DNA of 55,639 nucleotides, counting the filler, from Porpidia crustulata (taxonomy: Eukaryota), in the NCBI GenBank assembly GCA_964255105.1. It is 4 parts of 4 records of this genome, joined end to end, with 100 filler letters (N's around TTAATTAATTAA, not from the genome) between each part and the next. Parts side by side here need not be neighbours in the genome. Positions count along the whole stretch, not along the records: positions 13,968 to 27,806 come from CAXUWE010000409.1; 3 more parts are not named here. One strand, written 5' to 3'. The notes under the pieces were generated by a model, which did not search any database, was not told where the DNA came from, and saw only the letters and a program-made list of their open reading frames with translations. The position numbers and the translations under genes are program-made. Below are positions 13,868 through 46,888 of the stretch, piece after piece; the stretch's first letter is position 1; each line of letters starts with the position of its first letter.

Positions 13868-13967
13868 NNNNNNNNNNNNNNNNNNNNNNNNNNNNNNNNN
13901 NNNNNNNNNNNTTAATTAATTAANNNNNNNNNNNNNNNNNNNNNNNNNNNNNNNNNNNNNNNNNNNN
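13868..13967. other. Artificial contig spacer (N44-TTAATTAATTAA-N44)
   Basis: 100-nt N run with the six-frame-stop linker TTAATTAATTAA at 13912..13923. Confidence 0.97.
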
Positions 13968-14114
13968 ACCTCCGATATATAGACACGTAGCTAGACCGAC
14001 TCAATCCACAACCCTTTTCACCCTAAGTCAGCCCATCATATATTTCAACACTTGTTTTATTTAAATCTTAATCAGAGTTATAAATAAGCTTAAAAGGTTG
14101 AGAAATCCTATCGC

Positions 14115-14244
14115 TGTTGCATAACGAATGAATTACTACATCTCCATAACCCTAACCCTAGGGATTAGCGCGGACCGTGGGGGGTGGGAAAACGAGTGGT
14201 GTCCTCAGCCCCGTGTGGCGGAGATTGCCAATCCTTTATCGACA
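14115..14244 (-). mobile_element. Possible LTR / retrotransposon relic at contig end
   Basis: 130 bp bounded by TG...CA with imperfect inverted ends (TGTTGCATAA ... TTATCGACA). Next to AT/TA-rich sequence running to the contig break. No matching target-site duplication seen. Confidence 0.35.
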
Positions 14245-14338
14245 AAATTCAAGCCACTGATTTGACAACGACAGTTGGAAAAAGACCGAGTCTCCTAATC
14301 GCCAGGGGGCTTACTCGCCCATTTCCGTCTTCCACCGT

Positions 14339-16159
14339 TCACAACGGTGATACGAGCATATCCATCTCCGTCTGCTTCGTCACCCAATTTCCCACGACGT
14401 CCCATTGCCGGTCTGGGTGAGTGAGCTCGGCAGAAAAGTGGCGATAAAATCCGGTGATGAACTTGTAGATCTGCATCACAGCGATATTCTTCCCGATGCA
14501 CATGCGAGGGCCGGCGCCGAACTGATCCGGGATTTTAGCCGAATCATCCTACATTTCTCCAAAGGGACTGAAAACTTACCGAGAAAAGATTTCTCCTCAT
14601 TTCATCCACTGTCGCCGCGGGCCCGTCCAGCCATCGCTCCGGTCGGAAAACGTCTACATCTTGTCCATAGATCTCGGTGTTTCGATGAATGACCCAAGGG
14701 TTTACACCTACAATGGTGCCACCCGGTATTTTGTAGCCATCGATAACAGCACCCTCTGCAGGTGTTACACGTTCGTTGATAAGACCCAGGTTCCCATGGA
14801 TACGTAGCGACTCGTCGATGACTGCGCCCCTATTGCCAAAAATTTCTTAGTATTTGACATAGAACGAGATTGAATTGCTTACAGATACGAGAGCTTAGTG
14901 AGCTCTGCGTACGGAACTCTATTCGAAAGAGCATAATATGGTTCCAGAGTAGCAAGCTCGGTACGAAGCTTTGTTTCGACTCGAGGTGTTCGAGCAACGT
15001 AATAGAGTATTGCCCTGAGTGTCACAGCAAGAACATCGTGACCAGCCAGACTATATGACTTGTCAGTAAGCCCATCCGTTGGTTTATTGGTAGAAGAGCA
15101 AGCTGACAGATTGATATATATTGACCCCGTAATGTCTCTGATGGAGAGTTTGTCAGGCTGAGCCTCCCGGAGCTTAAGGAAGTTGTGGAGCATATCAGGA
15201 GTTTCAGTGGGTTTCTCAAGTCGTTCCTTGATTGCGGAAGCTGTGTACTGCATGACTGAGTCATCGCGTCGAGTCTAGCCATGTAGAGTGTATGCCAACC
15301 TTCAATACGGGATTCGACCGTTTCGAATCCCAATGATTTTCCTTGATCCATCGGAACCACTCAAGCAGCGGAGCTTGTGCATACTGCTCGTTGGCTTCAA
15401 AAACGTCCCTTTCATGGAGAAAACACTGGATCTACTCACCAATCCAGTTGCGAGTAGTTCTCGATCCGAAGCCTCGATCATCCCCTCGAAGTCCTCTCCA
15501 CCCTCCATAAATCCGAACATTTTCGAGATATTGAGCTCCCCGAGACAGTCGAAAGAGAAAAGGTGCACCCACAAAGACATATCCAGATTGGTAGGGTTAA
15601 CTTTTTGAGTTCGCTTTCGCATATGATTTAGAAACACCTCCATACACAAGTCGATCTTGGATTCTAAATCAAGCACAGCAGTCTTGGTATACAGACCGCC
15701 AACAACCTTCTTAAGAGACGAGTGATAGTTGACATCCCGGGCTGCAAATAGATTCAGTAATGGCGCTCCTTCAAAGGGTGCCGCCGTTGGATTGTAGAAA
15801 TCAGACTAGATCCGACTCATGATTAATATGATCCTCCACATTAACTGAAAGATGATGTATGAGAATATTCCCACTTTTGGGTAAGCTTGCCTAGATCCAT
15901 GAATGATCTGGAGTGCTCCCGGAGTCGAGAAGGATACATGTTTCGGGCCTATTCGGACAACTGGACCGTATTTTCTATGTATCGCTATATTCCGTTGTGG
16001 CATCTTGTCGTTGTAGACCGCTAGGACCTTCCATAGGTTACTGAAGCTTGCGGAGAAGGGCCCTGGAATGAGACTCAAGTCTCCACCGTATCGAGTGTAA
16101 ATCATCCGAAAGCTCAAACAGAGAGCACCAAGCGCAACGAACACCCAAATTGCAGCCAT
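14339..16159 (-). CDS. Cytochrome P450, multi-exon, apparently intact
   Basis: N-terminal TM anchor + IPGP, KYGPVVRIGP. I-helix NLLAGHDVLAVTLRAILYY, ExxR (DESLR), FRPERW, heme motif FGAGPRMCIG. Stop at 14339-14341. Exons join in frame at GT-AG introns. Confidence 0.95.
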
Positions 16160-17301
16160 TACTGAGGAAGATGGTGACTGGAAGTGTGTGGAATGAGGAA
16201 ATTGGTGGTATAAAACCTATGAAGCTTGATTGCTGTGGAAGGTTTAATCCCAGACTCAGTGCTTTATGAAATTGATATCACACTGCATCGTCCGATGTCA
16301 GGGAGAAAGTTACAGACAATGACTAGTGTAAACAATACAACTGTACGACGCCGATGTACGTCTGTACATGTTTATTACCTCGTCAACAAGTGGACTCTTA
16401 CGGAGGCAGCTGCCAGAAAGCTATCGGGGGGCTACGTCCAGCGAAGACACCCTCAACTGTCACAACCTACAGTCGATTCACGATAGAGACCTACCTTTGG
16501 CTCATCCCGGTGTCATAATGGAGGCAGTCGGAGGCAGCTGTTTTGCTTGTTGGCCACTCAGCATATTCTTCGGAGCCGCGCGGAATACTTCCGCCCGCTG
16601 CCTTGTTGTTGATCAACACGAATATGTGCAAATGTCGCCGGATTAGCTGGATGCAACCTGCTTTCTCCAGTACAAGCTTTGTGCAGGTAGGATGTAGTGG
16701 TGTGAGATAAGGAGCTCTGGAAGGATGGTTGGTTCTCGGAGGTGACAGCGAGGGAACCAAGCCGGCCAATTTTGGGTTCGCAACTCGTTTTCAATTTGCA
16801 TTTCTCCTGCATGCAAACGACATCTAATTGCAGTGATTTCACCAACTGCCGAAACTCAAGTCTCTTCACCGCTCCTTCAACCTCAACCATGCCAAAGAAT
16901 TGGACTTCATGTTCACATCTGGGGACAGGAAGGATGATGCTACCTTCCGGGATTTTTTTCATCGTTGATCGTCACCCAGCCTCGCAGATCGCACCTCAGG
17001 TTACTTGGTAGTAAGATTCATCTTTGGGTTGGGAGAGAAGATTGGTTTGATACAAGGTACTTGATGATCATGAGAAGGATTGACTCGTAGTCATTAACCC
17101 CGACATGGCCAATGAGAATATACTGGAATCCAGGTCTGATGGAAGTGCACACTTTACGCGCACATGTCTCGTGGGCTCTTGGCCTTCGACAACCGACCCT
17201 TCCATCTTTGAATATTTGAAAACTCACAAAGGGCACACGATATGCCCTGATTCGTACAACACCCTTGCAACTATCTTGAGAGATTCATTGAATCAATAAA
17301 C

Positions 17302-18788
17302 ATGGCTACAGCACTGCAAGAAAATAACTCCAACCTCAGACTCTGCCGTCTTCAATCTGCTTTGGACGGATTTTCCGTGGCCTCTAAATGGAACGAACTT
17401 CAAATGCACGACGAAAGAGTCAGACGATACCCTTGTTATCCCGTTGAGCTTTTGATCTGGAATCAAGTCAACTCGGAGCTCAAGAATTCTGAAACCACAA
17501 ACCACCGCTTTTGGTGGAGTCGGCACAGCGGAAAAGCACTTGCAGTCCTTCTTCACAATGCGAGATATCCTCCAGATATACAGTATCGGGACTTGAAGTT
17601 CTTTGCACAAGTTGTGGCTCCTAACCTTGGCGCCTCCCACGAGACTAGCATTGAAGGAGGTAGATCCTCGTGGCAAAGCTTCATGACTGATGATGGCACT
17701 CCTCTTGAGATGAGCTGGGACTGGGGCACAAAGGATAGTCTGCCAACAATACGCTATTCAGTAGAACCGATTGGGCTGCACGCAGGCACTGCGCTCGACC
17801 TCCACAATCTAGCTGTTGGACCTGGATTTCAGGATCAGCTTGTGCGTTGCTTGCCGAAGATGAGACTGGAATTGTTTCGACATTTCATGTCCTTCTTCAA
17901 TAGCGACGTCAACCATGAGGCAGGCCCCAAAGGGGACCACCAATCCTCCATCTTCTACGCATTCGACTTGGCAGCAACTGAAATCACGGCCAAAGTGTAT
18001 TTCTTTCCGAAGATGAGGGCAGAAACATGTGGTCAGTCAAATTTGGAAGTTATGCTGCAGGCAATCAACTCAATCCCTGCCGTGTCGAATGATGACCTGG
18101 AGGCTTGTACCATTTTTCGTGACTTCACTTCCGACGAAGTCAACAAAGATCTGGAATACGAAATGCTAGCCATCGATCTCGTCAACCCAACGAAGTCGCG
18201 CCTCAAGGTTTATTTTCGTTCCCGCGATACTAGCTTCGCCTCCGTCATCAACATAATGACTCTTGGTGGCCGTCTCAGGAATTCAAGGATATATCTAGGC
18301 CTCGTAGACCTTCACCGACTCTGGAAGGCGTTCTTCGGCGCCTACGGGCCCCTGGATCAGCCACTAGATGAAAATGGCCATCGTACAGCCGGCGTCCTCT
18401 ACAATGTCGAGTTCAGGCTGGGAGACTCAATCCCTGTTGCCAAGATCTATATACCCGTTCGACACTACTCCAGTAGCGATGCAGCCGTCATCAAAGGCCT
18501 GAATGATTACTTCCAATATCGCCAGAGAGGGAAATATATGCCTGATTATATCAAGGCAATGAGCACACTCTTGTAAGTTTGTTCTCCTATTCAGTTGAGG
18601 GCAAGGGAGTGTCTACAGTATTATTACTGATTTTCCAACTGTATAGCTCCGCCGAAACCATGAAGGCGCAGTCAGGAGTCCAGACCTACGTTGGGTGTAC
18701 TATTAGAGCAGATGGAACCTTGAGAGTGATTTCGTATTTTAAACCACAGATACCGGCACTCTTGTTTGGTGATGATGAAGGCACATAA
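17302..18788 (+). CDS. DMATS-superfamily (ABBA-fold) aromatic prenyltransferase
   Basis: FWW...L..LL..A.Y, SFMTDDGTPLEMSWDW, IRYSVEPIG, KVYFFP, AIDLVNPTKSRLKVYFR, AKIYIPVRHY. Intron 18573..18646 joins to the last exon GVQTYVGC...LRVISYFKP. Confidence 0.95.
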
Positions 18789-19876
18789 GCATTTCCGCGC
18801 AAGTGCTCAAATCCCAGCAGTCGTTCGATATTCAACCCATCAATGGTGCTTTGCGAATATATCAAATGCCACCTCGGGGAATCAGGACACTAGATCAGAT
18901 CGAGCATGTATAAAATCAGATAGCTACTTAGCTTCATTCCCATAGTCACTCCCATGCTAGCTAAGTCATTTCTGGGATGACCACTCCCCTCCTTTTCCAA
19001 GATTCATGCCCCCCTGCACCAACCAGAAACGGATTGTGCATCGATCGCCATTGGGCATGATCATTTGTAAGAACGATTCTTGGATGGTTATGTTACACAC
19101 TGGTACTCCGAGAAAACCCCGGGGCCCCACTCTTGGTGATCGGGGTGCTAACCAACACTGACACCTTTCACCAAAAGCGAATGCAAGTATTGCTATCAGG
19201 CCACGACGCTGTTTCCGCTTTTCCCGAAATAAGCAGGTAGTTGGAATATGTCATTTCATCGATTTCGTAGCTTTGTTCGCATCTCTCTGCACACAACATT
19301 GCATGGGGTGACATTGGACACTCCGGTCCGAGTGGGGCTGGCAATAAACTGATGGCATGCTCACGATCATCGATCCCGAACCCTCGAGATTGAGGACTTT
19401 CCTGATAATTGCCAGATCGGGTCCAAATCGCTGAAGTTGCTTGACCGAGCATATTTCCTATGGTCGGACACTATGTAGTACTGCTCGCAGATGATTAAAT
19501 ACGATATATTTGCAGCGGCGTTGCTTGACTTGCTTACCGAGCTTGCCGAGCTTGCCAAGGCTCCGTTAGACTTCTCTCGCTTGTCTCATCTCTCACTGCT
19601 ACTGTGACAGCTTGGATTTCTGACCAGCGTGCTGCATAGACTATTGCATGTAGATCTGCTGCAAGTTCCTTTAGCTGCCATGGGTATCCGTGGCACATCA
19701 AATATCACCGGAAGAGTGTTTCGAGTGCTCACCAATGCACTCTCTCCAGTCCACCCAGTCCGTCAAAGCCCGAGTCAGGCCATGTCAACTACTCACATGA
19801 TATTTCCAGAACGTGTTTGATGCCTTCTGTGTGAAAACCCTCCCGCCGAGTTGTCTATCCGTCGAGCAGCACCATC

Positions 19877-22290
19877 ATGAACCACACCGACATAGTCATC
19901 AAAGAGTGGCAGAATCTGGAGAATCTGCTCAATAGAGAGGACTCGCATTCTGTCGTCCTGACAGGCCATGCTTTGACTATTCCAGATATTGTCGCGGTCT
20001 CCCGGTTTGCCAGCCCCCTCGTCATTTCAAGTCACATGGCTTAGGGGATTTCATGACTGAAAATTGCAGTCACAATGTATATACAGACATCAGTCCGTCT
20101 GTTATTGAGTCTATGCTCTCCAGTCTAAATACGCTTGAGAACAAGATTCGAGATGGCGACATTATCTACGGTATGAGTTGCCCACTACCGAAGGTTGGCA
20201 TATTTTAATGTTTGTTACTTTAGGTGTAAATACTGGCTTTGGAGGGTCAGCAGATATACGTACCAAAAAGCTCGCTCAATTACAACGGGCCGTAATCAGA
20301 GAACTTCACTATGGTGTTCTACCACCTGGGGAAAGAGACCACCATTTACCGCCACTGGAAGCGTCTCTGGCCAAACACCACCACGATGTGATGACCGACA
20401 CCGAGACTGAGAGGTCTTATCTGCCAAGGTCTTGGACCCGCGCAGCCATACTGATTCGAATCAACTCTTTGATATCCGGATTTTCAGCTGTCAGACCCGT
20501 GATCGTCGAACGAATGCAAGACTTGTTGAAACACGACATCACACCAATGATTCCTATGCGCGGGAGTATCTCCGCATCTGGCGACCTGAGTCCCCTTTCC
20601 TACATTAGTGGTGCCATTCAAGGCAAATCTTCAATCCGGATCATTTCCAGGGACAGTCAGTCTCTGTACGCGAACGACGCTTTCTTCAAGTTTGGTTTGG
20701 AACCACTTACATTGCAAGCGAAGGAGGGCCTTGCTATGACTAACGGAACGACCGTATCAGCTGCCGTAGCTGCTTTGGCTCTCAATGACACCCATGTCCT
20801 AGCAATTATGGCCCAACTTCTGACTGCCATGAGCGTTGAAGCTCTACACGGAACAAGCGAAAGCTTCCATCCTTTCTTCTCTGAAATTCGACCACATCCT
20901 GGCCAGGTAAATAACCCAACTCCTTCTCACCACGCACTTTACTTGTCAATTGAGCTAACATCAGCGAAAGATTGAATCTGCACGCAATATCTTGGGATTT
21001 CTGAAAGGCTCTAAGCTGACCAGAGTCAACGTTGGAGCCAATGCTGTTTTACGCCAGGATAGATATTCAATTCGGACCGCCCCACAGTGGCTTGGTCCTA
21101 TTCTGGAAGATCTTGTCCTGGCCCATCAACAGATATCCATTGAATGCAATTCCGTGACCGATAACCCCCTTGTGACCTCGGACGGAGAGTTCCTGCATGG
21201 TGGGAATTTTCAGGCCAAGGCAGTAACTTCTGCCATGGAGAAAGTAAGACAGGGCCTTCAAGGCATCGGTCGCATGATCTTTTCCCAATGCACTGAACTC
21301 ATTAACCCTGTCATGAACAGAGGTCTTCCTCCAAATTTGATCGCCGATGATCCCGGCGTCTCTCTGATTTTCAAGGGCACAGATCTCAATGTTGCAGCAC
21401 TAGCGGCAGAGCTTGGCTTTCTTGCCAATCCTGTTAATCACGTACAGACGGCAGAGATGGGAAATCAATCGCTCAATTCTCTAGCCCTCATATCTGCTCG
21501 ATATACCCATACTGCGATTGAAGTGCTTTCTCAGCTGATGGCAGCACACTTAATCGCCGTTTGCCAGGCCCTGGATCTCCGTGCCATGCACATTCAGTTT
21601 CTGGAGCTCTATCGGCCTCAGTTTTACGAGCTAGTTGCCGAACATTATGCGGCCAGTGGCCTTGTAGAGCTATCCCCATATACCAAAACGCTTCCGGAAG
21701 TGGAGTCGATTTTATCGAACCTTTCAAACCCGTCTGCGAACCTGACGAAGCTGCCAAATGGCTCAACGCACAACTCACCCGGCCAGACCAAGTCATCAGC
21801 CTTGGATGGATTGGGGGAATTGCTTTGGTCTCAGGCTCTGGTATCTTTCGATACAACGACCAGCATGGACGCGGCGGAACGGTTTATTACCATTGCAAAT
21901 TCGCTGCGTCCCGTTCTGCTGGATCACGCCTTCCTCAACAAGGCCGCAGACTTTGTTACCCGGCTCGAGGCTTTCACCGATGCCACCAGTGTTTCGATGA
22001 GGGACGCCTGGTGCTCGCACAGGGACGCATATATAGTTCACGGTGATGCAACTGCAGTACTCGGTACCGCATCGAAGGCAATGTACACATTCGTCCGTCA
22101 ATCACTGAATGTGCCAATGATGGCGACAAGAAATCTTTCGACGCCCCGAATGGATCAGTCTTTTCCCCCCGGTGAACATGGCTCTCGAGCGCCGACGGTG
22201 GGCTCATATACGGGCGCTGTTTATCGGGCTCTGAGAGATGGCACCATGGGGAAATTCGCAGTAGACGTCTTGAAGACTGTTTCAGAATAG
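19877..22290 (+). CDS. MIO-dependent aromatic amino-acid ammonia-lyase (PAL/TAL family), 4 exons
   Basis: ATG 19877 (MNHTDIVIKEW...LTGHALTIPDIVAVSR). Spliced IIYGVNTGFGGSAD (catalytic Tyr loop), MIO triad GSISASGDLSPLSY, KEGLAMTNGT. Intron 20907..20970, then QDRYSIRTAPQWLGP, NSVTDNP, HGGNFQ, AEMGNQSLNSLAL. Confidence 0.96.
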
Positions 22291-25139
22291 TCAAAATTTA
22301 CAACCGAGATTGACTCTTAGTACCTCAAACCAGAATGGTGTATGGAAACAATTTACTCTGGCTTTGTTTGTTACACAGATGAAACTCGATACGATTGCGT
22401 ATTCCCCTTCTGCCGACGTGTAGAGCATGGAAGTGAAAAGGATAAACCATGTGCTACCTTCGCAACCAGATCCAGTCTGTTAGCATTTGTTAATAATCTC
22501 CGCCACATGTGGCTGTAGACGCCGACAGAATTTCCCTCAATTTTTTCCTGTTCCAACCCCTCCTCCAAATAACATCAAACCATACCTGATCCGCCGACAG
22601 ATCTCAGTTTCTCTGCGCTTTTACAAACCCACTCCTTCGCTTGTAATCGTCGCGTGAAGTTCCGCGCAGTCATCTTCGGGACTACGAACGTGATCTTACT
22701 GTATTTGAATTACTCTAAATTAAATCGAGGACTACCTACTGCTTTCTTTACGAACGCGCTCGATACACAGGATTTTTGAAGTATAGTTCATGGCTTAGGT
22801 GGTTGACGTTGATTTGATATTATGAGGTCCATTTTTTAGGGAAGAGTGTCAATGTGCCAGTTGGTATAGACGGCAGGGTTGTTGTGAAGGATGATGGATG
22901 AGTAAAATCTGTTTGGCTGGACTGATCTATTATCTTTGCCCCAGAATACTCTGCAACGTTTGTATTGTTGACGTCCACTCATGATACCTCGTAACATCTG
23001 TGGCCAAACACTATCGCTTTGAACCAGGCTTCGAAGTGATGATACTCGGCCGACTTTACTGTTCATTAACGAGAACACACTTCATCGCGTTTGGTCGTGT
23101 CCACTGCGATGTTGACCGGGAATTCGCAACGACTGTGTTGTCGAGGACTCGGATGGCTGATCTATATCCAAATTTCTTTGAATCAAAATTTTCTTTGTTT
23201 GAAAACACGCATCCGACTGTGCTTGGGCTCGTGGAATACTCGATGAGTAGATTCAAGGTATAGTATGGCGCTCATGTACCCAGCGTGAGGGACGTTGCTA
23301 TAAGACCATATTACCCTAGTGGATATTGAATATACTATGCAGGCTAGTAATGCAATGATCGCTGTCATGGCTGGGACCTAGGTAATTACGGGACCGGCTT
23401 GCGCCACTTGAACCTAACGTTATCCGCAAATGGTTGCTTGAGGCTGGTGATGGATTTTTCTATTCGCAGCCACATTCCGCCGGCAAAGTCGCGAAAATTG
23501 ATATCAATATATAATAAAACGGTTCAGAGGTGCTTGATCATCCTAAAAACATACGAAGCAATGACACGAAAATGCATAATGGAAATTAAAGCACCATGTT
23601 TGATGATTTTCAGATTGAAGCTTTCAAGCATTGAATCGTTGAAGTGTTCGAATATCATGCTATTGAATAACATAATCGACTCCCTCCATCAATAGTCATG
23701 TTGCGCGATCACATATATTCCTCTGTTGGTTGCTATCTGCGCACGCTCCGAGAGACCTCAAGCACTTGATGAATTTAAGTAGGGTTAGTCAGGCAAAAAT
23801 ACCATCGCAACCGATATCTTAAGCCGTGGTAAATAGCTAGATTCTTGTACGGAGATGGCTTGACATTAGTTATTCCAGGGTCTAAGAGTTTTGGCGACTT
23901 TGAAAGCCAAATGATGAGTCGAAAACTGGCTTTGAAATTCATAACATACAATTATATATCTAGAGCCTTGTCAGTCGAGGTGGTAAGTAAGAGACATGTG
24001 GCTGCACAGGCCTCTTGTTCTATGGAGTAGAGGAGCCTGCAGATTGAGACAACAGGTGGGTCAGAGGCGACATTTGCGGTACTTCAGCAATCACTGTCTC
24101 ACCTCAGAGTCTCAGAGCGAGTGTACATTCTCCTCATGACGACGACGGACAACGTAAACCTCGGAGGAAAGCGACGTCAAGGAATAGAGGGATGATAGCA
24201 CAAAGCGCTGTCACGTAGCCGATTTAGAGTCATACAACTCTCGTCACGCGCGCCGATGGTGAGGCTTTATTCGCGTGAGGAAGAGTCATTGCGATCATCC
24301 TGAAAGCATCCTGAAAGCCACAGCCTCACTTCCTGTGCTTCGCGGTCGAAAAGTGGTCAGGTTAGGCAAACCAGTAGTTGTGATAGTTATGTGGCAAACT
24401 GCTGCGCCATGGCCGCTAGCACTTATGAGGTCTAGAGCAGGGGCCGTCAGCCTCGCTCGTGCGCTCGCGCCTCGGGCCGCAGTTGACAACCTCGTCCCAC
24501 TCCTCCAATCAACTCATCTATCCGACAAATGATGAAGGAAGGGACCAGCCAGTGCCCCACAAACTGAGGCTTACACCATCGTCACGACCCAAAAGATGAC
24601 TCTGATTCTTCCTCGGTGATCCTTTAGAGCGAACTTCCATCACACATTGTCACTGCTGAGGGCTGTATTTCTTCGCTCAGCCCCTCGGCTGACAGCCCCA
24701 TCAGCTCCAATTACCACGACATCCCGTCAGTCAAGTTTCTCTCTCTCGCAAACTCAATGGCTTGAGCAGCTCCCTCTCCATAATGATTGTTTGTATGATT
24801 TCGAAGTCCGAGAGCCGCCATGAACGGACGAAGGAATAAGGCTGCGCTTAATACCATTTGCGAAGGGTGTACAAGGGCAGCGGATTATGTGTGGATGATC
24901 TCATGCACACAATAATGGCCCTTTATGAGGCCAGGGGTGGTTGTATATCATCCTGTGCTCCCTTGGTACATTTGGAGGAAAAACCACAAATCCATTGAGC
25001 AATCAGAATCATCGCCACATGCCTGGTATTAAAATATTCATCGACTTCACTGATTGGTCGTTGATAGTCAGAAATCTTCCGATTACCCAGTCACGGCGAT
25101 CAATTGCTTGAAGAGCTAATTCATTGCGGACCACCGCTG

Positions 25140-26974
25140 ATGATGACAACCTTCAACAACTACCGCGGAAGTCTCTCCCACAGAGTGCCGAACAATGGCT
25201 ATCTGCCTCGCAATCAACCGGATCGAGCCTCTGCGTCTATGCACTCTGATGATCCTTCCGAAGACTCTCTGTCCGTTCTGTTCCATGGTAGCTGTCCAAG
25301 ATGCTTTCACCTACATACCGGGTTCCCGCTTACGCTGCCTCGTAACCCGACGGTACATACTCGATTTAGATGTGAGAACTGTGACCATATAATGTTTGGT
25401 ATCGGCAGGACATCCACGCAAACAACGCTTACATCAATGGAATCTTTGGTTATTGGTTACGAAAGTGCGAGGACGCCAGTCCATCATTGCGTCAACCGAC
25501 AGAGCCTTTCTCTAGACCCAGCTGTTGTTTCCGGACCAGATGACCCCTCAGAGCCATTGACTACAATCGCAGAAGTGAATACAACACCAGGACGGAGTAG
25601 GTCTACGTCAAATATACATCCACTGGAGACCCCATCCATTTGGCAAGAAGACCGTCCACCCGCAAGTATGCCTATCTTCGAAGATTCTCCCGAGGAGCGA
25701 ATCGCTGGGCCTGTGCCTGGACCAAGAGATGATCGATATATGGATGCCACGACAGGAAAGACATCAAGGCGTTGGCAGGGCATAGTAACATGGGCAAAGA
25801 AGCGGCTGCTCAACAGATGGTCGAAGTCAAAGACCCAGGAGAAAGCGAAGTAAGTCACCACGACCGCTTGTTCGCAACAAACAGTGACCTGTACAGATCG
25901 GGAGGAAATCACAGTCCAGCTAGTCACCCCCATGATGGTAATGCACGCATGGAGGTTCCAAGTAGTGCGAGCTCCCATCAGCCATCGATCATTGGAATAG
26001 GAGCTTCAGATACGTCGCCGCGGGTACCAGATTTCGCTAGAGATCTTGATGTCATCTCGAACTCACATAGCTCTTCCAACTTAGAAGAATCGATTCTCCC
26101 TGACCCCAACTCTACTGAGGCTGAACTTGCAAGTAGAAGAAAGCTTGAGCGTGTGCAGGCCAAGCGTAGGGAGGGGACCCTGCGAAGACAATTCGCCGAA
26201 AGGCCAAGATGCTTGTGCACCTCTGATTGTCATTGTATGGAGGACAATGGAGATCCAGACATAACGAGCACTGACAGAGGAGGCTCTTCAATTGATATCG
26301 AGGTACTTGATCCTCATTTGGGCCGTTTCTTAGGCCGGGCCCCCTACATTAATGTTCTCGCAGGGTTAGGCACCCTTTTTAACCCGGAGCCGCGACCTTC
26401 TTCCAGCGAAGGAAATTCAAGTACGGTGGCGGAAAGTACAAGGACATCGAGCAGGCTAAGTCAAAGAACTGCAGTAGATGGTGCCGTACCATCTTCGCGA
26501 AGTAGACCAACCTCCGCAGGACGTTCATCTAGTGCGCCCCTAATCCAACGGCGCGACCGTGGTGGCTTTTACCATCCCACACCTAGAGATCTCCGTAGAC
26601 GATCCGAGACCCGAGAAGATCGCCACTCCACAACAGACGGCGAGACTTCTACTTCACGGCCCCCGACCACAGACGACGCTGCCTCCAGCGCATCGAACAG
26701 CATCGATGGCTCTCGTAACTTTCGTGTCCCCAATCACATAGGTGCTAACGACCTCGCAAACCTACCTACCCCAGGGTCGCATGAAATGCCGATAACGCCC
26801 TCCCGTCAGGTATCGGCGGTAGGCGATAGCCAAGAGATAACCCCGAGACCATATAGCTTCGACGGTGCAGGCAACGGGTCCTCAGGATCAGCTCGATCTC
26901 TGTCGGAGACGTTAACAACAGCATTGGAAGAGCTTGTGAACGGTATTTCGGATGATCACAGTGCCGTCCGATGA
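25140..26974 (+). CDS. Hypothetical protein with Cys/His (putative zinc-binding) motifs, 2 exons
   Basis: ORFs 25104..25853 and 25772..26974 are joined in frame by intron 25850..25896 (GTAAGT...TGAC...CAG). Motifs CPRCFHLH...CENCDH and CLCTSDCHC. Confidence 0.7.
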
Positions 26975-27806
26975 AGGTGCTGTGTAAGACTTCACGACAG
27001 AACCAAAGGACGGAATCAGGCCGTCGCTCTTACATGCTTGGTTTTCATCTCTATTGGGTTTCATCTCAGGCTGTTTGGTTGAGTCGCTTCATTAATTTGA
27101 TCTGTTTTTGTATTCTATATAGTCTTGACTCCCACAGCGGTTCTTTGTATTTGTAAGCCTTGTCTTCTGCGCTTATATACCATGTTCAATTATCCGAGTC
27201 TATTCAACTCGGCGTTTCCATATCACTCTTTCAGCGGCATGTCTATCCCGGACTGCCCCATCATTGATACATCTTGCTCTTGGTATTGAGAGTGTTGAGA
27301 TAACAGATTCAGCTTTGAAGAAACTGATATCACATCTTTGCTGTAACTCTGGACGCGACGTATCGGGGATGAAACAGATTCTTTCCGTTTGATATTCTAC
27401 TTGTCGTCATGCTTGCCCAATATTTAAACCACCATCCTACCTGCTTAACGCAACGCTAAATTATAGACACCCAATTTCCGTTTATCTCAACACATGTCTC
27501 CAAACGTCACGTCTCAGGCGTATGCTTTCGAACCCACGCCTTCCTGAACGTACAATCCTCTATCCCTTTCCCTTTGCCAAAAACCCTTCTACATCCACCT
27601 CTCCCAACCAGTAAATGTTTACTCTAAGTACTATTCAAATATATGATACAACCCAAACACACACCCAGAATCCTCTCCCATTTCTTTAATAACTATCATC
27701 CGCAATTCACTCATTCTAACCAATAGTTTTCTCTCCTACGGGAGACACGAACTCGAGCGTGAAAAAAGTGGGTTTTTTTATTAAGCTCGCCCTGGTGGGG
27801 TTGGGG

Positions 27807-27906
27807 NNNNNNNNNNNNNNNNNNNNNNNNNNNNNNNNNNNNNNNNNNNNTTAATTAATTAANNNNNNNNNNNNNNNNNNNNNNNNNNNNNNNNNNNNNN
27901 NNNNNN
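27807..27906. other. Artificial contig spacer
   Basis: N run with TTAATTAATTAA at 27851..27862. Confidence 0.97.
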
Positions 27907-41726: not shown

Positions 41727-41826
41727 NNNNNNNNNNNNNNNNNNNNNNNNNNNNNNNNNNNNNNNNNNNNTTAATTAATTAANNNNNNNNNNNNNNNNNN
41801 NNNNNNNNNNNNNNNNNNNNNNNNNN
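41727..41826. other. Artificial contig spacer
   Basis: N run with TTAATTAATTAA at 41771..41782. Confidence 0.97.
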
Positions 41827-44732: not shown

Positions 44733-46888
44733 CTACCACGTTTCTTGCCTATACCTCCCTTCCCTCTCCATTGCCTTTAAGTATTCTTCCGCTGTCGCCA
44801 GCGGCATGCCTCCACATGTCTTAAGGACCTCCGTGATCGCCGCCCGAACCGCCTGCGGCATCTTACCTGATGATCCGCAGACATACACGATACCACCTGA
44901 ATCGTGAAGCAAGCGGAAAACGAGATCGGCTTGCTGTTTGAGAATATCTTGGACGTAGATTTTTTGGCTCTGGTCACGGGAGAAGGCGGTGAAGACCTGC
45001 AGGGGCATTTTGGTTTTTAGGTGGGCCCAGTCTTGGCGGTAGAAGTAGTCGGAAGACAAGTTTCGGCACCCGAAGAAGAGGATGGTTTGGCCGATGGTGT
45101 TGGTGTTGATATATGTTCCGTTCCCGTTTCCGACTCTGTTCTCGCGTTTTCCGGCTTGAGCCTCGAATTCTTCGGCCCATTGAAGTCGTTCCCATATCAG
45201 AGAACGCATTGGTGCCACCCCTGTTCCAGGACCGATCAGCACTACCGGCTTCCTGGCTTCGGCTCTCGTGATACCCAGACCACCCTTCTGCAAAGTCACC
45301 AGCATTTCTGCGCCGGGAGACATGGCTGCGAGATATCGCGTGCATACTCCTTGACGGATCTTCTTGATCACGGTCTTGTATTTGACAATGGCTACCAACA
45401 GATCAAATGATGACTTTCCGTCGGCAGTTCTTTTCAGTTGGCCGCCGCTGGCGATACTGAATTGACGACCTCGAAGCTCTGGTAGAACACTAGCAGCCCA
45501 TTGCCAGGCAATACGCACAGATGCAAATTCTTGCAAGACTTCCGGAATACTGCGCCTAGGTCTGGTGGTATAGTCATATAACTCGTCAATATATTCTGGC
45601 TTCGTAAATTCAAGTAGTCTGTCCTTGTGGTATTGATCTTGTGTGAAATGTGCTATCAGAGCAAAGAAAGAGCGGCGTGGTACTGCTGTAAGATCTAAGT
45701 AGGAAGTTAACAATTCTCGAAGGGTCAAACGACGGTATTCGGGCCGAATGGCGATCGGGAGGTTGGACTTTGAATCTGCGGCGGAATCTGAGCCAGTCCA
45801 GACGAAGTTCAATGGCTTATCCGCGACAGCCTTCCAATCCATCATGTCGATGAAGTTGTCTACGTCTTCAGGAAAGTTCTTTGGATATATCGTAAGGACG
45901 TCACCAGGTTCATAGACAGATGGCAAATTGCTCTGGAACACCAAATGACGTACATCCTGCCAATGACCTGGATGAGTTAATCTTCGGTTCTCTTGAAGTG
46001 AGACATTGAGCCTATTATCAAGCTCGCACGTTGTATTTTCAGCGACGTTTCCATTAGTGATTAGTGTTTTACCCTTCTGAGGGTCTTCAGATAAATTCTC
46101 AGGCTGTCGCTTTACGCTATGGTGATTCCCATTGGTGACTGGATGATCGGACTTATTCGTAGATTCTTCTAGTAAAGCCAAACTCCATTTAGGAATGAGG
46201 AATTCATTCTCGGGGATAGGGTTGATGCCTTGATCCAGGGGAAACGTATGTAGTAGATGCCGGCGAAGATCTGTGGACCATGGAACAAAACTTCCATCAA
46301 GACTTTACCAACAAGGTCAGAGAGAGGTACTTGAAAATTGCACTATCAATGGAGATATTATACCCATCTGGATGCTGCTCATCTCCTTCACCACAAGGGT
46401 ACAGCTCATGTGCGCCCAACTGGATCAATCTTTTATGTAGCTTGCGGGCGGCCCAGTTAAATCTTTGTTATATCAGCATGGAATGCGAAAAAATCATCAG
46501 CTCCACGTTGTACTTAGGGTATGAGCTGTCTCCAAGCCCAAATGTAGTAAATTGAACATCTTGGAGATAATCGGGTGGCAACTTTCGCCGCAGCAAGCTC
46601 TTCCAGAATTGTCGCGCGTTGTATGGCAGATCGCCTTGGCCTGCAGTCGATATGGAAATAACGAGAATGGAATATTCGGAAAGTGACCGCTGAGGTAAAT
46701 TCAATCAGCCTTGCCAGTAACAGTATGTTGCCACGTACTGGTTCAATTGTGTTTAAACTTGAGACGTGTGTTTGAAATCGGAGTCGCTCTATGATGGAAC
46801 CTAATTCTCCAGCGAAATCTTGCGCAGTACCGGTTTCTGAACCGTAGAGGACTAGAGCCGATCTATTGCGACGTCCTTGGCCGGCCAT
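44733..46888 (-). CDS. TAH18: NADPH-dependent diflavin oxidoreductase 1 (Tah18/NDOR1)
   Basis: Flavodoxin motifs LYGSETGTAQD, STAGQGDLP, FGLGDSSYPK; FAD/NADPH motifs RQFSIAS, GVCTRYL, IGPGTGVAPMRS, LFFGCRN, AFSRDQ, YVCGSSGKMP; ends RYRQETW*. Confidence 0.94.

Follow-up and report, generated by a model that had tools for sequence, protein, structure and literature searches.

A P450, prenyltransferase and ammonia-lyase gene trio in Porpidia crustulata as a probable member of the penipratynolene (ppn) cluster family

Does a compact group of three enzyme genes in the genome of Porpidia crustulata encode a new pathway, or can its chemistry be read from a cluster that is already known? We analyzed a window of 55,639 nucleotides, filler included (GenBank assembly GCA_964255105.1), in which positions 14339-22290 hold genes for a cytochrome P450, a DMATS-type prenyltransferase, and an ammonia-lyase of the 4-methylideneimidazole-5-one (MIO) type, referred to below as the trio. 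An earlier interpretation made from the DNA alone (the sequence-only reading) had proposed a novel, minimal route to prenylated phenylpropanoids. The pathway type is real but has already been characterized: the ppn cluster of Penicillium polonicum, which makes penipratynolene, is described in a preprint (Liu, Ohashi, Han, Zhou, Houk, and Tang, bioRxiv, 28 May 2026; PMC13232330), and the window contains a further homologue from a different lineage, possibly in a minimal three-gene form. This preprint was the only report of the biosynthesis found in a literature search whose coverage left out most subscription journals, so that the work may also have appeared in a journal or been matched by a competing paper. 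The sequence-only reading had itself allowed that an orthologous characterized cluster in MIBiG would undo its novelty; the preprint, rather than a MIBiG entry, supplies a homologous cluster that has been characterized. We consider that the trio is probably the core of a ppn-type cluster, of the group named Clade I in the preprint, for O-alkylated tyrosine or aryl allenyl-ether metabolites.

According to the available text of the preprint, the P. polonicum cluster was functionally reconstituted, and its ABBA-type prenyltransferase PpnA prenylates only L-tyrosine, yielding O-prenyl-L-tyrosine, and rejects p-coumarate, 4-hydroxybenzoate, and the related alcohol and aldehyde (PMC13232330). The P450 PpnB converts O-prenyl-tyrosine to O-homoallenyl-tyrosine through an oxidative C(sp2)-demethylation that leaves a terminal allene, and it rejects O-prenyl-coumarate and O-prenyl-benzoate (PMC13232330). 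PpnC is inactive on phenylalanine and tyrosine and deaminates O-prenyl-tyrosine and O-homoallenyl-tyrosine to the p-coumarates, with O-prenyl-p-coumarate as a real intermediate or a shunt product of the pathway (PMC13232330). A second P450, PpnD, and a methyltransferase, PpnE, complete penipratynolene, while the oxidoreductase PpnF and the berberine bridge enzyme (BBE)-like PpnG have no assigned step in that text (PMC13232330). The reaction of this family, in which a methyl group is cut from an sp2 carbon of the prenyl chain to leave an allene or an alkyne, is without precedent in the account given there (PMC13232330). The same source describes PpnB homologues as tightly linked to PpnA homologues, gives 65 to 70% identity within the PpnB family, and sorts the clusters into clades (PMC13232330). 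Clade I comprises clusters resembling ppn, for which A. arundinis and X. telfairii serve as examples; Clade II combines a prenyltransferase and a P450 with an N-acyltransferase, its P450 NseB (a 65% homologue) forming mainly an internal alkyne on the way to sinuxylamide; and of Clade III no more is said than that its relationship to Clade I is distant (PMC13232330). Whether an allene or an alkyne results is set by distal residues (PMC13232330).

Gene models and predicted enzymes

Gene models of the trio were obtained by aligning close homologues to the DNA and choosing the in-frame GT-AG introns that maximized the alignment score, and stop-to-stop open reading frames (ORFs) of the window were searched with Pfam. 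Pfam matches and this homologue-guided splicing together give three intact, open, intron-containing genes (Table 1), in keeping with the three intact genes in 8 kb that the sequence-only reading had announced, and the end coordinates it gave are the stop codons of the P450 and the lyase. All 10 introns are GT-AG and measure 52 to 89 nt. The P450 and DMATS genes diverge across the roughly 1.1 kb that had been proposed, and the lyase indeed follows in tandem on the DMATS strand, its start codon 1,088 bp past the DMATS stop. The stretch separating the two divergent genes is presumed to be a shared promoter. No Pfam match was found in its ORFs, and it has no k-mer of 10 nt or more in common with the DMATS-lyase spacer; 9-mers common to the two are no more frequent than in shuffles.

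The closest named relatives of the three genes are in Hypoxylaceae and in a metagenome-assembled genome (MAG) of the lichen-associated Stictis. Identity to Hypoxylon sp. FL0543 is 82.6% for the P450, 76.8% for the DMATS protein, and 82.8% for the lyase. In P. polonicum, a 621-kb contig carries one homologue of each of the three, namely OQD61524.1 (P450, 73.1% identical to the window protein), OQD61507.1 (DMATS, 61.0%), and OQD61545.1 (lyase, 70.0%), and in related Penicillium genomes the homologues of this P. polonicum trio are consecutive genes in the same order as in the window. We infer that OQD61507.1, OQD61524.1, and OQD61545.1 are PpnA, PpnB, and PpnC, respectively.

The prenyltransferase matches PF11991 (Trp_DMAT) over profile positions 2-356 of 357 (1.5e-88, 298 bits), and its single intron, GTAAGT...TAG, can be read directly in the DNA. 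Among solved structures it matched 16 of the DMATS family, the closest being amino-acid prenyltransferases: 8DAY, "dimethylallyltryptophan synthase 1" (1.4e-42), and 9IIA, GliD1. By homology, the enzyme is predicted to be a PpnA-like L-tyrosine O-prenyltransferase.

For the P450, Pfam p450 matched on two minus-strand exons, and the gene model has 6 GT-AG introns of 52 to 69 nt. The motifs ESLR (ExxR) and RPERW (PERW) and the loop of the cysteine ligand, FGAGPRMCIG, are kept. In the I-helix motif AGHDV (model residues 294-302; exon 15050-14883), valine replaces the conserved threonine, as it does in all 24 members of the family that we aligned. A valine at this position would, we infer, weaken proton delivery and favor a ferric-peroxo route to C-C scission, as considered in the preprint (PMC13232330), and the substitution may bear on the peroxo-type cleavage chemistry. 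In a maximum likelihood tree of 24 sequences, the window P450 groups with sequences of Hypoxylon, Nodulisporium, and Annulohypoxylon (SH-aLRT 99), and this Hypoxylaceae clade, with the window protein in it, is sister (88) to a group of Penicillium, Talaromyces, and Ophiocordyceps sequences. The window P450 lies closer to Penicillium than to Xylaria, Nemania, and Apiospora, whose sequences are in the other half of the tree. A separately deposited "cytochrome P450 monooxygenase" of Nodulisporium sp. (AVY05537.1) is an orthologue of the trio P450 and is nearly identical in the tree to the Hypoxylon sp. FL0543 protein. We predict that the window P450 is a PpnB-like prenyl C(sp2)-demethylase.

Both large plus-strand exons of the lyase match PF00221 (Lyase_aromatic). 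The Ala-Ser-Gly triad that forms the MIO cofactor lies within GSISASGDLSPLSYI, and SISASGDLSPLSYI is aligned with the ASG of the Rhodosporidium phenylalanine ammonia-lyase (PAL) structure 1Y2M. The columns of His137-Gln138 in 1Y2M are, we assume, the positions that decide between phenylalanine and tyrosine in PAL and tyrosine ammonia-lyase (TAL). The pair found there is Phe-Leu in PAL and His-Leu or His-Gln in TAL and PAL/TAL enzymes. The window lyase has neither canonical pair and carries Glu-Leu instead (motif IRELHYG, exon 20224-20906), and the loop just after this site is longer than in 1Y2M. Of 77 full-length homologues aligned, 76 have glutamate in the selectivity column, the P. polonicum protein among them, and the homologues that bear it reach down to 51% identity and include proteins of Aspergillus section Nigri. 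This distribution points to a large subfamily of fungal lyases for which phenylalanine and tyrosine may not be substrates. The Glu-Leu pair agrees with the reported inactivity of PpnC on both amino acids, and the window protein is predicted to be a PpnC-like O-alkyl-tyrosine ammonia-lyase.

Conservation of the trio in other fungi

Homologue searches returned 302 matches for the DMATS exon, 2009 for the large lyase exon, and 21 for one P450 exon, and cluster look-ups added more. Synteny was judged by locus tags and accessions; a partner gene was visible only if it was present in a match list, and the survey is not a census. The P450, DMATS, and lyase genes have strictly consecutive identifiers, always in this order, in at least 12 named ascomycete genomes (Table 1), which we take to span at least three classes. 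Near-consecutive trios are found in Ophiocordyceps australis (CDD81_4296/4295/4293) and Penicillium egyptiacum (CAG8900566/63/60). Among the matches listed, only pairs were seen in Hypoxylon texense, Talaromyces islandicus, Xylaria longipes, Xylaria arbuscula, Penicillium expansum, Annulohypoxylon sp. FPYF3050, and Stromatinia cepivora, and DMATS matches of other fungi, e.g., Diaporthe citri, Jackrogersella, and Truncatella, had no visible partner among those matches, which is not evidence of absence. The same applies to the Stictis urceolatum MAG, in which the DMATS and lyase genes lie on separate short contigs. Because the trio is consecutive and in the same order in 12 named genomes, it is a conserved unit and more than a chance grouping. 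The sequence-only reading had asked whether the genes are neighbors elsewhere, and they are; its view of the trio as one biosynthetic pathway holds up as well, since the neighbors are conserved in many genomes and their relative ppn has been characterized.

The identities are far above taxonomic expectation. For example, the O. australis P450 is 84% identical to that of P. polonicum, and the window trio is 77 to 83% identical to that of Hypoxylon sp. FL0543 and 82 to 83% identical to the genes of the lichen-associated S. urceolatum MAG. Such figures would be in line with horizontal transfer of the trio from one fungal class to another, and the trio may have moved as a unit, given its identity to Hypoxylon and the closeness of the Ophiocordyceps and Penicillium P450s.

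In one scan of metagenome contigs, 30 loci were recovered, all with distant DMATS relatives (at most 44% identity), and no orthologue was among them. At several of these loci (L004, 9881-14761; L018/L020, 6987-11239; and L016), a distant DMATS gene (30 to 43%) adjoins an aromatic ammonia-lyase gene, and genes with AMP-binding (CoA-ligase-like) and fungal-rhodopsin domains lie close by. Pairing of a DMATS gene with a lyase gene therefore extends beyond the ppn family. At another locus (L001, 6273-11125), the DMATS gene is divergent from a 53% homologue of the trio P450 and is accompanied by a flavin-containing monooxygenase (FMO)-like gene, with no lyase.

Proposed pathway and alternatives

We file the trio under Clade I because of its 61 to 73% identity to the P. 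polonicum genes, the presence of the consecutive trio in A. arundinis and X. telfairii, the position of the P450 in the tree, and the occurrence of a lyase without an acyltransferase. A PpnA-like DMATS gene stands beside a PpnB-family P450 gene, and the third partner is an ammonia-lyase rather than an N-acyltransferase; no acyltransferase domain was found in the ORFs scanned on the trio piece, so that the locus is not of the sinuxylamide (Clade II) type. Each chemical step in P. crustulata is carried over by analogy with ppn. The DMATS enzyme would use dimethylallyl diphosphate (DMAPP) to O-prenylate free L-tyrosine. The P450 would then oxidize a terminal methyl group of the prenyl chain stepwise and cleave it off, in a CYP51-like scission at an sp2 carbon, to give O-homoallenyl-L-tyrosine with its four-carbon terminal allene. 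Finally, the MIO lyase, specialized for O-alkylated tyrosines, would deaminate this compound to O-homoallenyl-p-coumaric acid, with O-prenyl-p-coumarate as a shunt product. General fungal catabolism could shorten the coumarate to the corresponding 4-hydroxybenzoate ether. By this analogy, the most likely product is O-homoallenyl-p-coumarate.

The sequence-only reading arranged the same enzymes differently: the lyase would supply cinnamate or p-coumarate as the scaffold, the DMATS enzyme would prenylate the acid, and the P450 would hydroxylate the product or cyclize it to a chromene or benzofuran. Its outline of a prenylated phenylpropanoid was right insofar as prenyl-derived p-coumarate ethers are expected, and it can appeal to generic family functions and to the occurrence of O-prenyl-p-coumarate in the characterized pathway. 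The order of steps, the role of the lyase, and the P450 chemistry have all to be revised in light of ppn, however, as far as that pathway is described in the available text: PpnA acts first, on free L-tyrosine only, and rejects p-coumarate, 4-hydroxybenzoate, and the corresponding alcohol and aldehyde; PpnC does not use phenylalanine or tyrosine and takes only O-alkylated tyrosine; and PpnB does not accept O-prenyl-coumarate and carries out a C(sp2)-demethylation to a terminal allene (PMC13232330). As the window lyase also has the same noncanonical Glu-Leu pair as its P. polonicum counterpart, we regard this order of events as very unlikely. Still less credible is that the genes are neighbors without a shared pathway, for instance a PAL serving catabolism and a P450 akin to benzoate hydroxylases that happen to adjoin an unrelated prenyltransferase. 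Several homologues are indeed named "benzoate 4-monooxygenase cytochrome P450" at NCBI, but the gene order is kept with consecutive identifiers in 12 genomes of different classes, and the P. polonicum cluster was functionally reconstituted (PMC13232330).

A more serious alternative concerns the P450 alone. Tyrosine O-prenylation and O-alkyl-tyrosine deamination would proceed as above, but the conserved P450 would not be the allene-forming demethylase; it could instead be PpnD-like, acting late on a benzoate or cinnamate ether to form an allylic or propargylic alcohol, or could perform another oxidation of the prenyl ether. Several observations lean this way and weigh against the assignment that we prefer. 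The pocket residues given in the preprint, V127/L380 in PpnB and I126/F379 in NseB, do not map onto our sequences: in OQD61524.1 these positions are K127 and Y380, V...L pairs with a spacing of 253 residues occur only at 67/320 and 211/464, neither site being plausible, and Ile/Phe stands at the corresponding columns in none of the 24 P450s of the family. The ppn cluster holds two P450s, and OQD61524.1 could be either one, the main text of the preprint giving no accession numbers (PMC13232330). The conserved P450 may therefore be PpnD, or the gene model of the authors may differ from that at NCBI. The P450 of Nemania serpens adjoins neither of the listed N. serpens DMATS genes, and the comparison set is without a verified Clade II sequence. 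NseB, a 65% homologue, forms mostly an alkyne, and since distal residues set the allene or alkyne outcome, selectivity cannot be read from pocket residues or the exact product from sequence (PMC13232330). Finally, counterparts of PpnD to PpnG were not found within 13968-27806, but only 371 bp of this piece remain on the far side of the P450, and a second P450 could lie beyond that contig end.

Even so, we favor PpnB over PpnD as the identity of the conserved P450, and a P450 with other chemistry appears rather unlikely. The preprint, in the text available, stresses the tight linkage of PpnB and PpnA homologues (PMC13232330), and the trio-type P450 adjoins the DMATS gene in every genome with comparable identifiers. 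The L001 metagenome locus pairs such a P450 (the 53% homologue) divergently with a DMATS gene in the absence of a lyase, the 65 to 73% identity across classes matches the preprint's 65 to 70% within the PpnB family, and the genomic context is that of a lyase rather than an acyltransferase.

The trio supplies one more sequence that can serve enzyme mining and the mapping of what controls allene versus alkyne formation, but it opens no new question; the survey adds the fixed gene order in 12 genomes, the Glu-Leu pair as a trait of the lyase family, and a P450 family without the I-helix threonine. More would follow in a case that we hold to be possible though unlikely, namely that the three genes of the window make up the whole pathway in a lineage remote from Penicillium or that the conserved P450 is not PpnB and has undescribed chemistry. 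The three-gene form would end in a free aryl homoallenyl (or butynyl) ether of p-coumarate or 4-hydroxybenzoate, a product of the terricollene type, which is known from an endolichenic fungus. Were the conserved P450 not PpnB, the most widespread form of the cluster would perform chemistry not yet described.

Contig context and comparison with known systems

The window is composed of four assembly pieces of about 13.8 kb joined by linkers of the form N44-TTAATTAATTAA-N44 (Table 1), and genes that a linker separates are for this reason not demonstrated neighbors, which affects any long-range reading of the context. For example, a trio island bounded by housekeeping genes (a proteasome subunit and ribosomal protein L4) was considered and rejected, as both genes are on other pieces. 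The sequence-only reading had stressed that the contig has no polyketide synthase (PKS), nonribosomal peptide synthetase (NRPS), or terpene cyclase. None was found among the 51 ORFs scanned of the 128 of at least 90 aa in the rest of the window, but the real contig measures only 13,839 bp, exactly the length of the longest contig recorded for the window's own proteins, and its lack of other genes consequently says little. No Pfam family matched at an E value of 0.1 or lower in 59 ORFs of at least 45 aa from the intergenic and flanking stretches, and the 5.5 kb to the right of the lyase are without a Pfam-recognizable enzyme. An ORF-poor stretch with a GC content of 0.43 to 0.45 begins here, of which about 2 kb past the lyase have no long ORF and no ORF with a Pfam match and may be degraded sequence or a long regulatory or untranslated region. 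Farther right are serine-rich ORFs without an assigned function; an atlas search with 25068-25850 gave weak matches only (at most 0.81). An imperfect 29-nt inverted repeat flanks the trio, with arms that are 83% complementary, share an exact 13-mer at their inner ends, and lie 113 bp past the P450 stop and 205 bp past the lyase stop. Part of it recurs once more to the right and nowhere else in the window, and its significance is weak (0.22 matches expected from 100 shuffles and 2 seen, one of them by construction). On another piece and unlinked to the trio, an ORF with FAD_binding_1 and NAD_binding_1 domains is of the diflavin reductase or P450-reductase type.

Table 1. Features of the trio locus and its surroundings in the window, and identifiers of consecutive P450-DMATS-lyase trios in other genomes
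Feature	Position or identifiers	Strand	Details
P450 gene	16159->14339	minus	7 exons, 491 aa
P450 exons	16159-15875, 15805-15440, 15383-15300, 15247-15108, 15050-14883, 14829-14580, 14521-14339	minus	
P450-DMATS divergent intergenic region	16160..17301		1,142 bp between start codons
DMATS gene	17302-18788	plus	exons 17302-18572, 18647-18788; 470 aa
Ammonia-lyase gene	19877-22290	plus	exons 19877-20004, 20094-20170, 20224-20906, 20971-22290; 735 aa
Assembly piece with the trio	13968-27806		13,839 bp; left end (13968) 371 bp past P450 stop codon
Artificial linker	13868..13967		N44-TTAATTAATTAA-N44; left of trio piece
Further artificial linkers	27807-27906, 41727-41826		N44-TTAATTAATTAA-N44
Right flank to piece end	22291..27806		Pfam, composition, translations
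ORF-poor stretch	22.3-25.0 kb		GC 0.43-0.45
Stretch past the lyase	22400-24200		GC 0.43-0.45
Serine-rich ORFs	25068-26971		
Inverted-repeat arms	14198-14226, 22495-22523		29 nt
Partial recurrence of the repeat	23994-24012		
Diflavin reductase-type ORF	44736-46304	minus	other assembly piece
Xylaria flabelliformis trio	FHL15_001249/48/47		
Aureobasidium pullulans trio	QM012_006364/63/62		
Penicillium freii trio	N7527_005375-77		
Penicillium sp. CMV-2018d trio	N7465_003777-79		
Penicillium longicatenatum trio	N7507_004383-85		
Penicillium viridicatum trio	N7501_007584-82		
Xylaria telfairii trio	KAI0446170-68		
Apiospora arundinis trio	PG989_006995-97		
Hypoxylon sp. FL0543 trio	KAI1138396-94		
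Lentithecium fluviatile trio	KAF2676486-88		
Nemania bipapillata trio	ONZ43_g2647-49		
Lasiodiplodia mahajangana trio	O1611_g5238-40		

Among known systems, clusters of the asperpentyn and biscognienyne type employ a membrane-bound UbiA-type prenyltransferase on 4-hydroxybenzoate and keep all five carbons of the prenyl group. They resemble the window in being fungal clusters with a lyase and a P450 that converts a prenyl chain to an unsaturated C-C system. The window prenyltransferase, however, is of the soluble DMATS type and is proposed to act on tyrosine with the later excision of one carbon, and no UbiA match was present in any scanned ORF. SirD of the sirodesmin pathway and TyrPT of Aspergillus niger are DMATS-family enzymes that O-prenylate free L-tyrosine. 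Set beside the window by description only, they are only remote relatives, and the product of SirD enters an NRPS pathway; PpnA itself is about 30% identical to SirD (PMC13232330).

The ppn cluster is the nearest counterpart. It, too, sets the genes for a prenyltransferase of the DMATS/ABBA type, a P450, and an aromatic ammonia-lyase side by side, at the identities given above, and it differs in the genes for PpnD, PpnE, PpnF, and PpnG, of which no counterpart was found on the short piece that carries the trio. With no such late genes on the piece, the expected end product would be an allenyl coumarate or benzoate rather than penipratynolene. The nse and xte2 clusters for sinuxylamide (Clade II) share a PpnA-like prenyltransferase and a PpnB-like P450 acting on O-prenyl-tyrosine, but as described in the available text they have an N-acyltransferase, no lyase, and mainly an internal alkyne as the outcome, whereas the window has a lyase and no recognizable acyltransferase (PMC13232330). 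For the P450 step, the preprint draws an analogy to CYP51, with three oxidations of the methyl group followed by C-C scission (PMC13232330). The sterol 14-alpha-demethylase CYP51 belongs to an unrelated P450 family, and it removes its methyl group from an sp3 carbon and leaves an alkene, whereas the window P450 is predicted to act at an sp2 carbon and to leave an allene.

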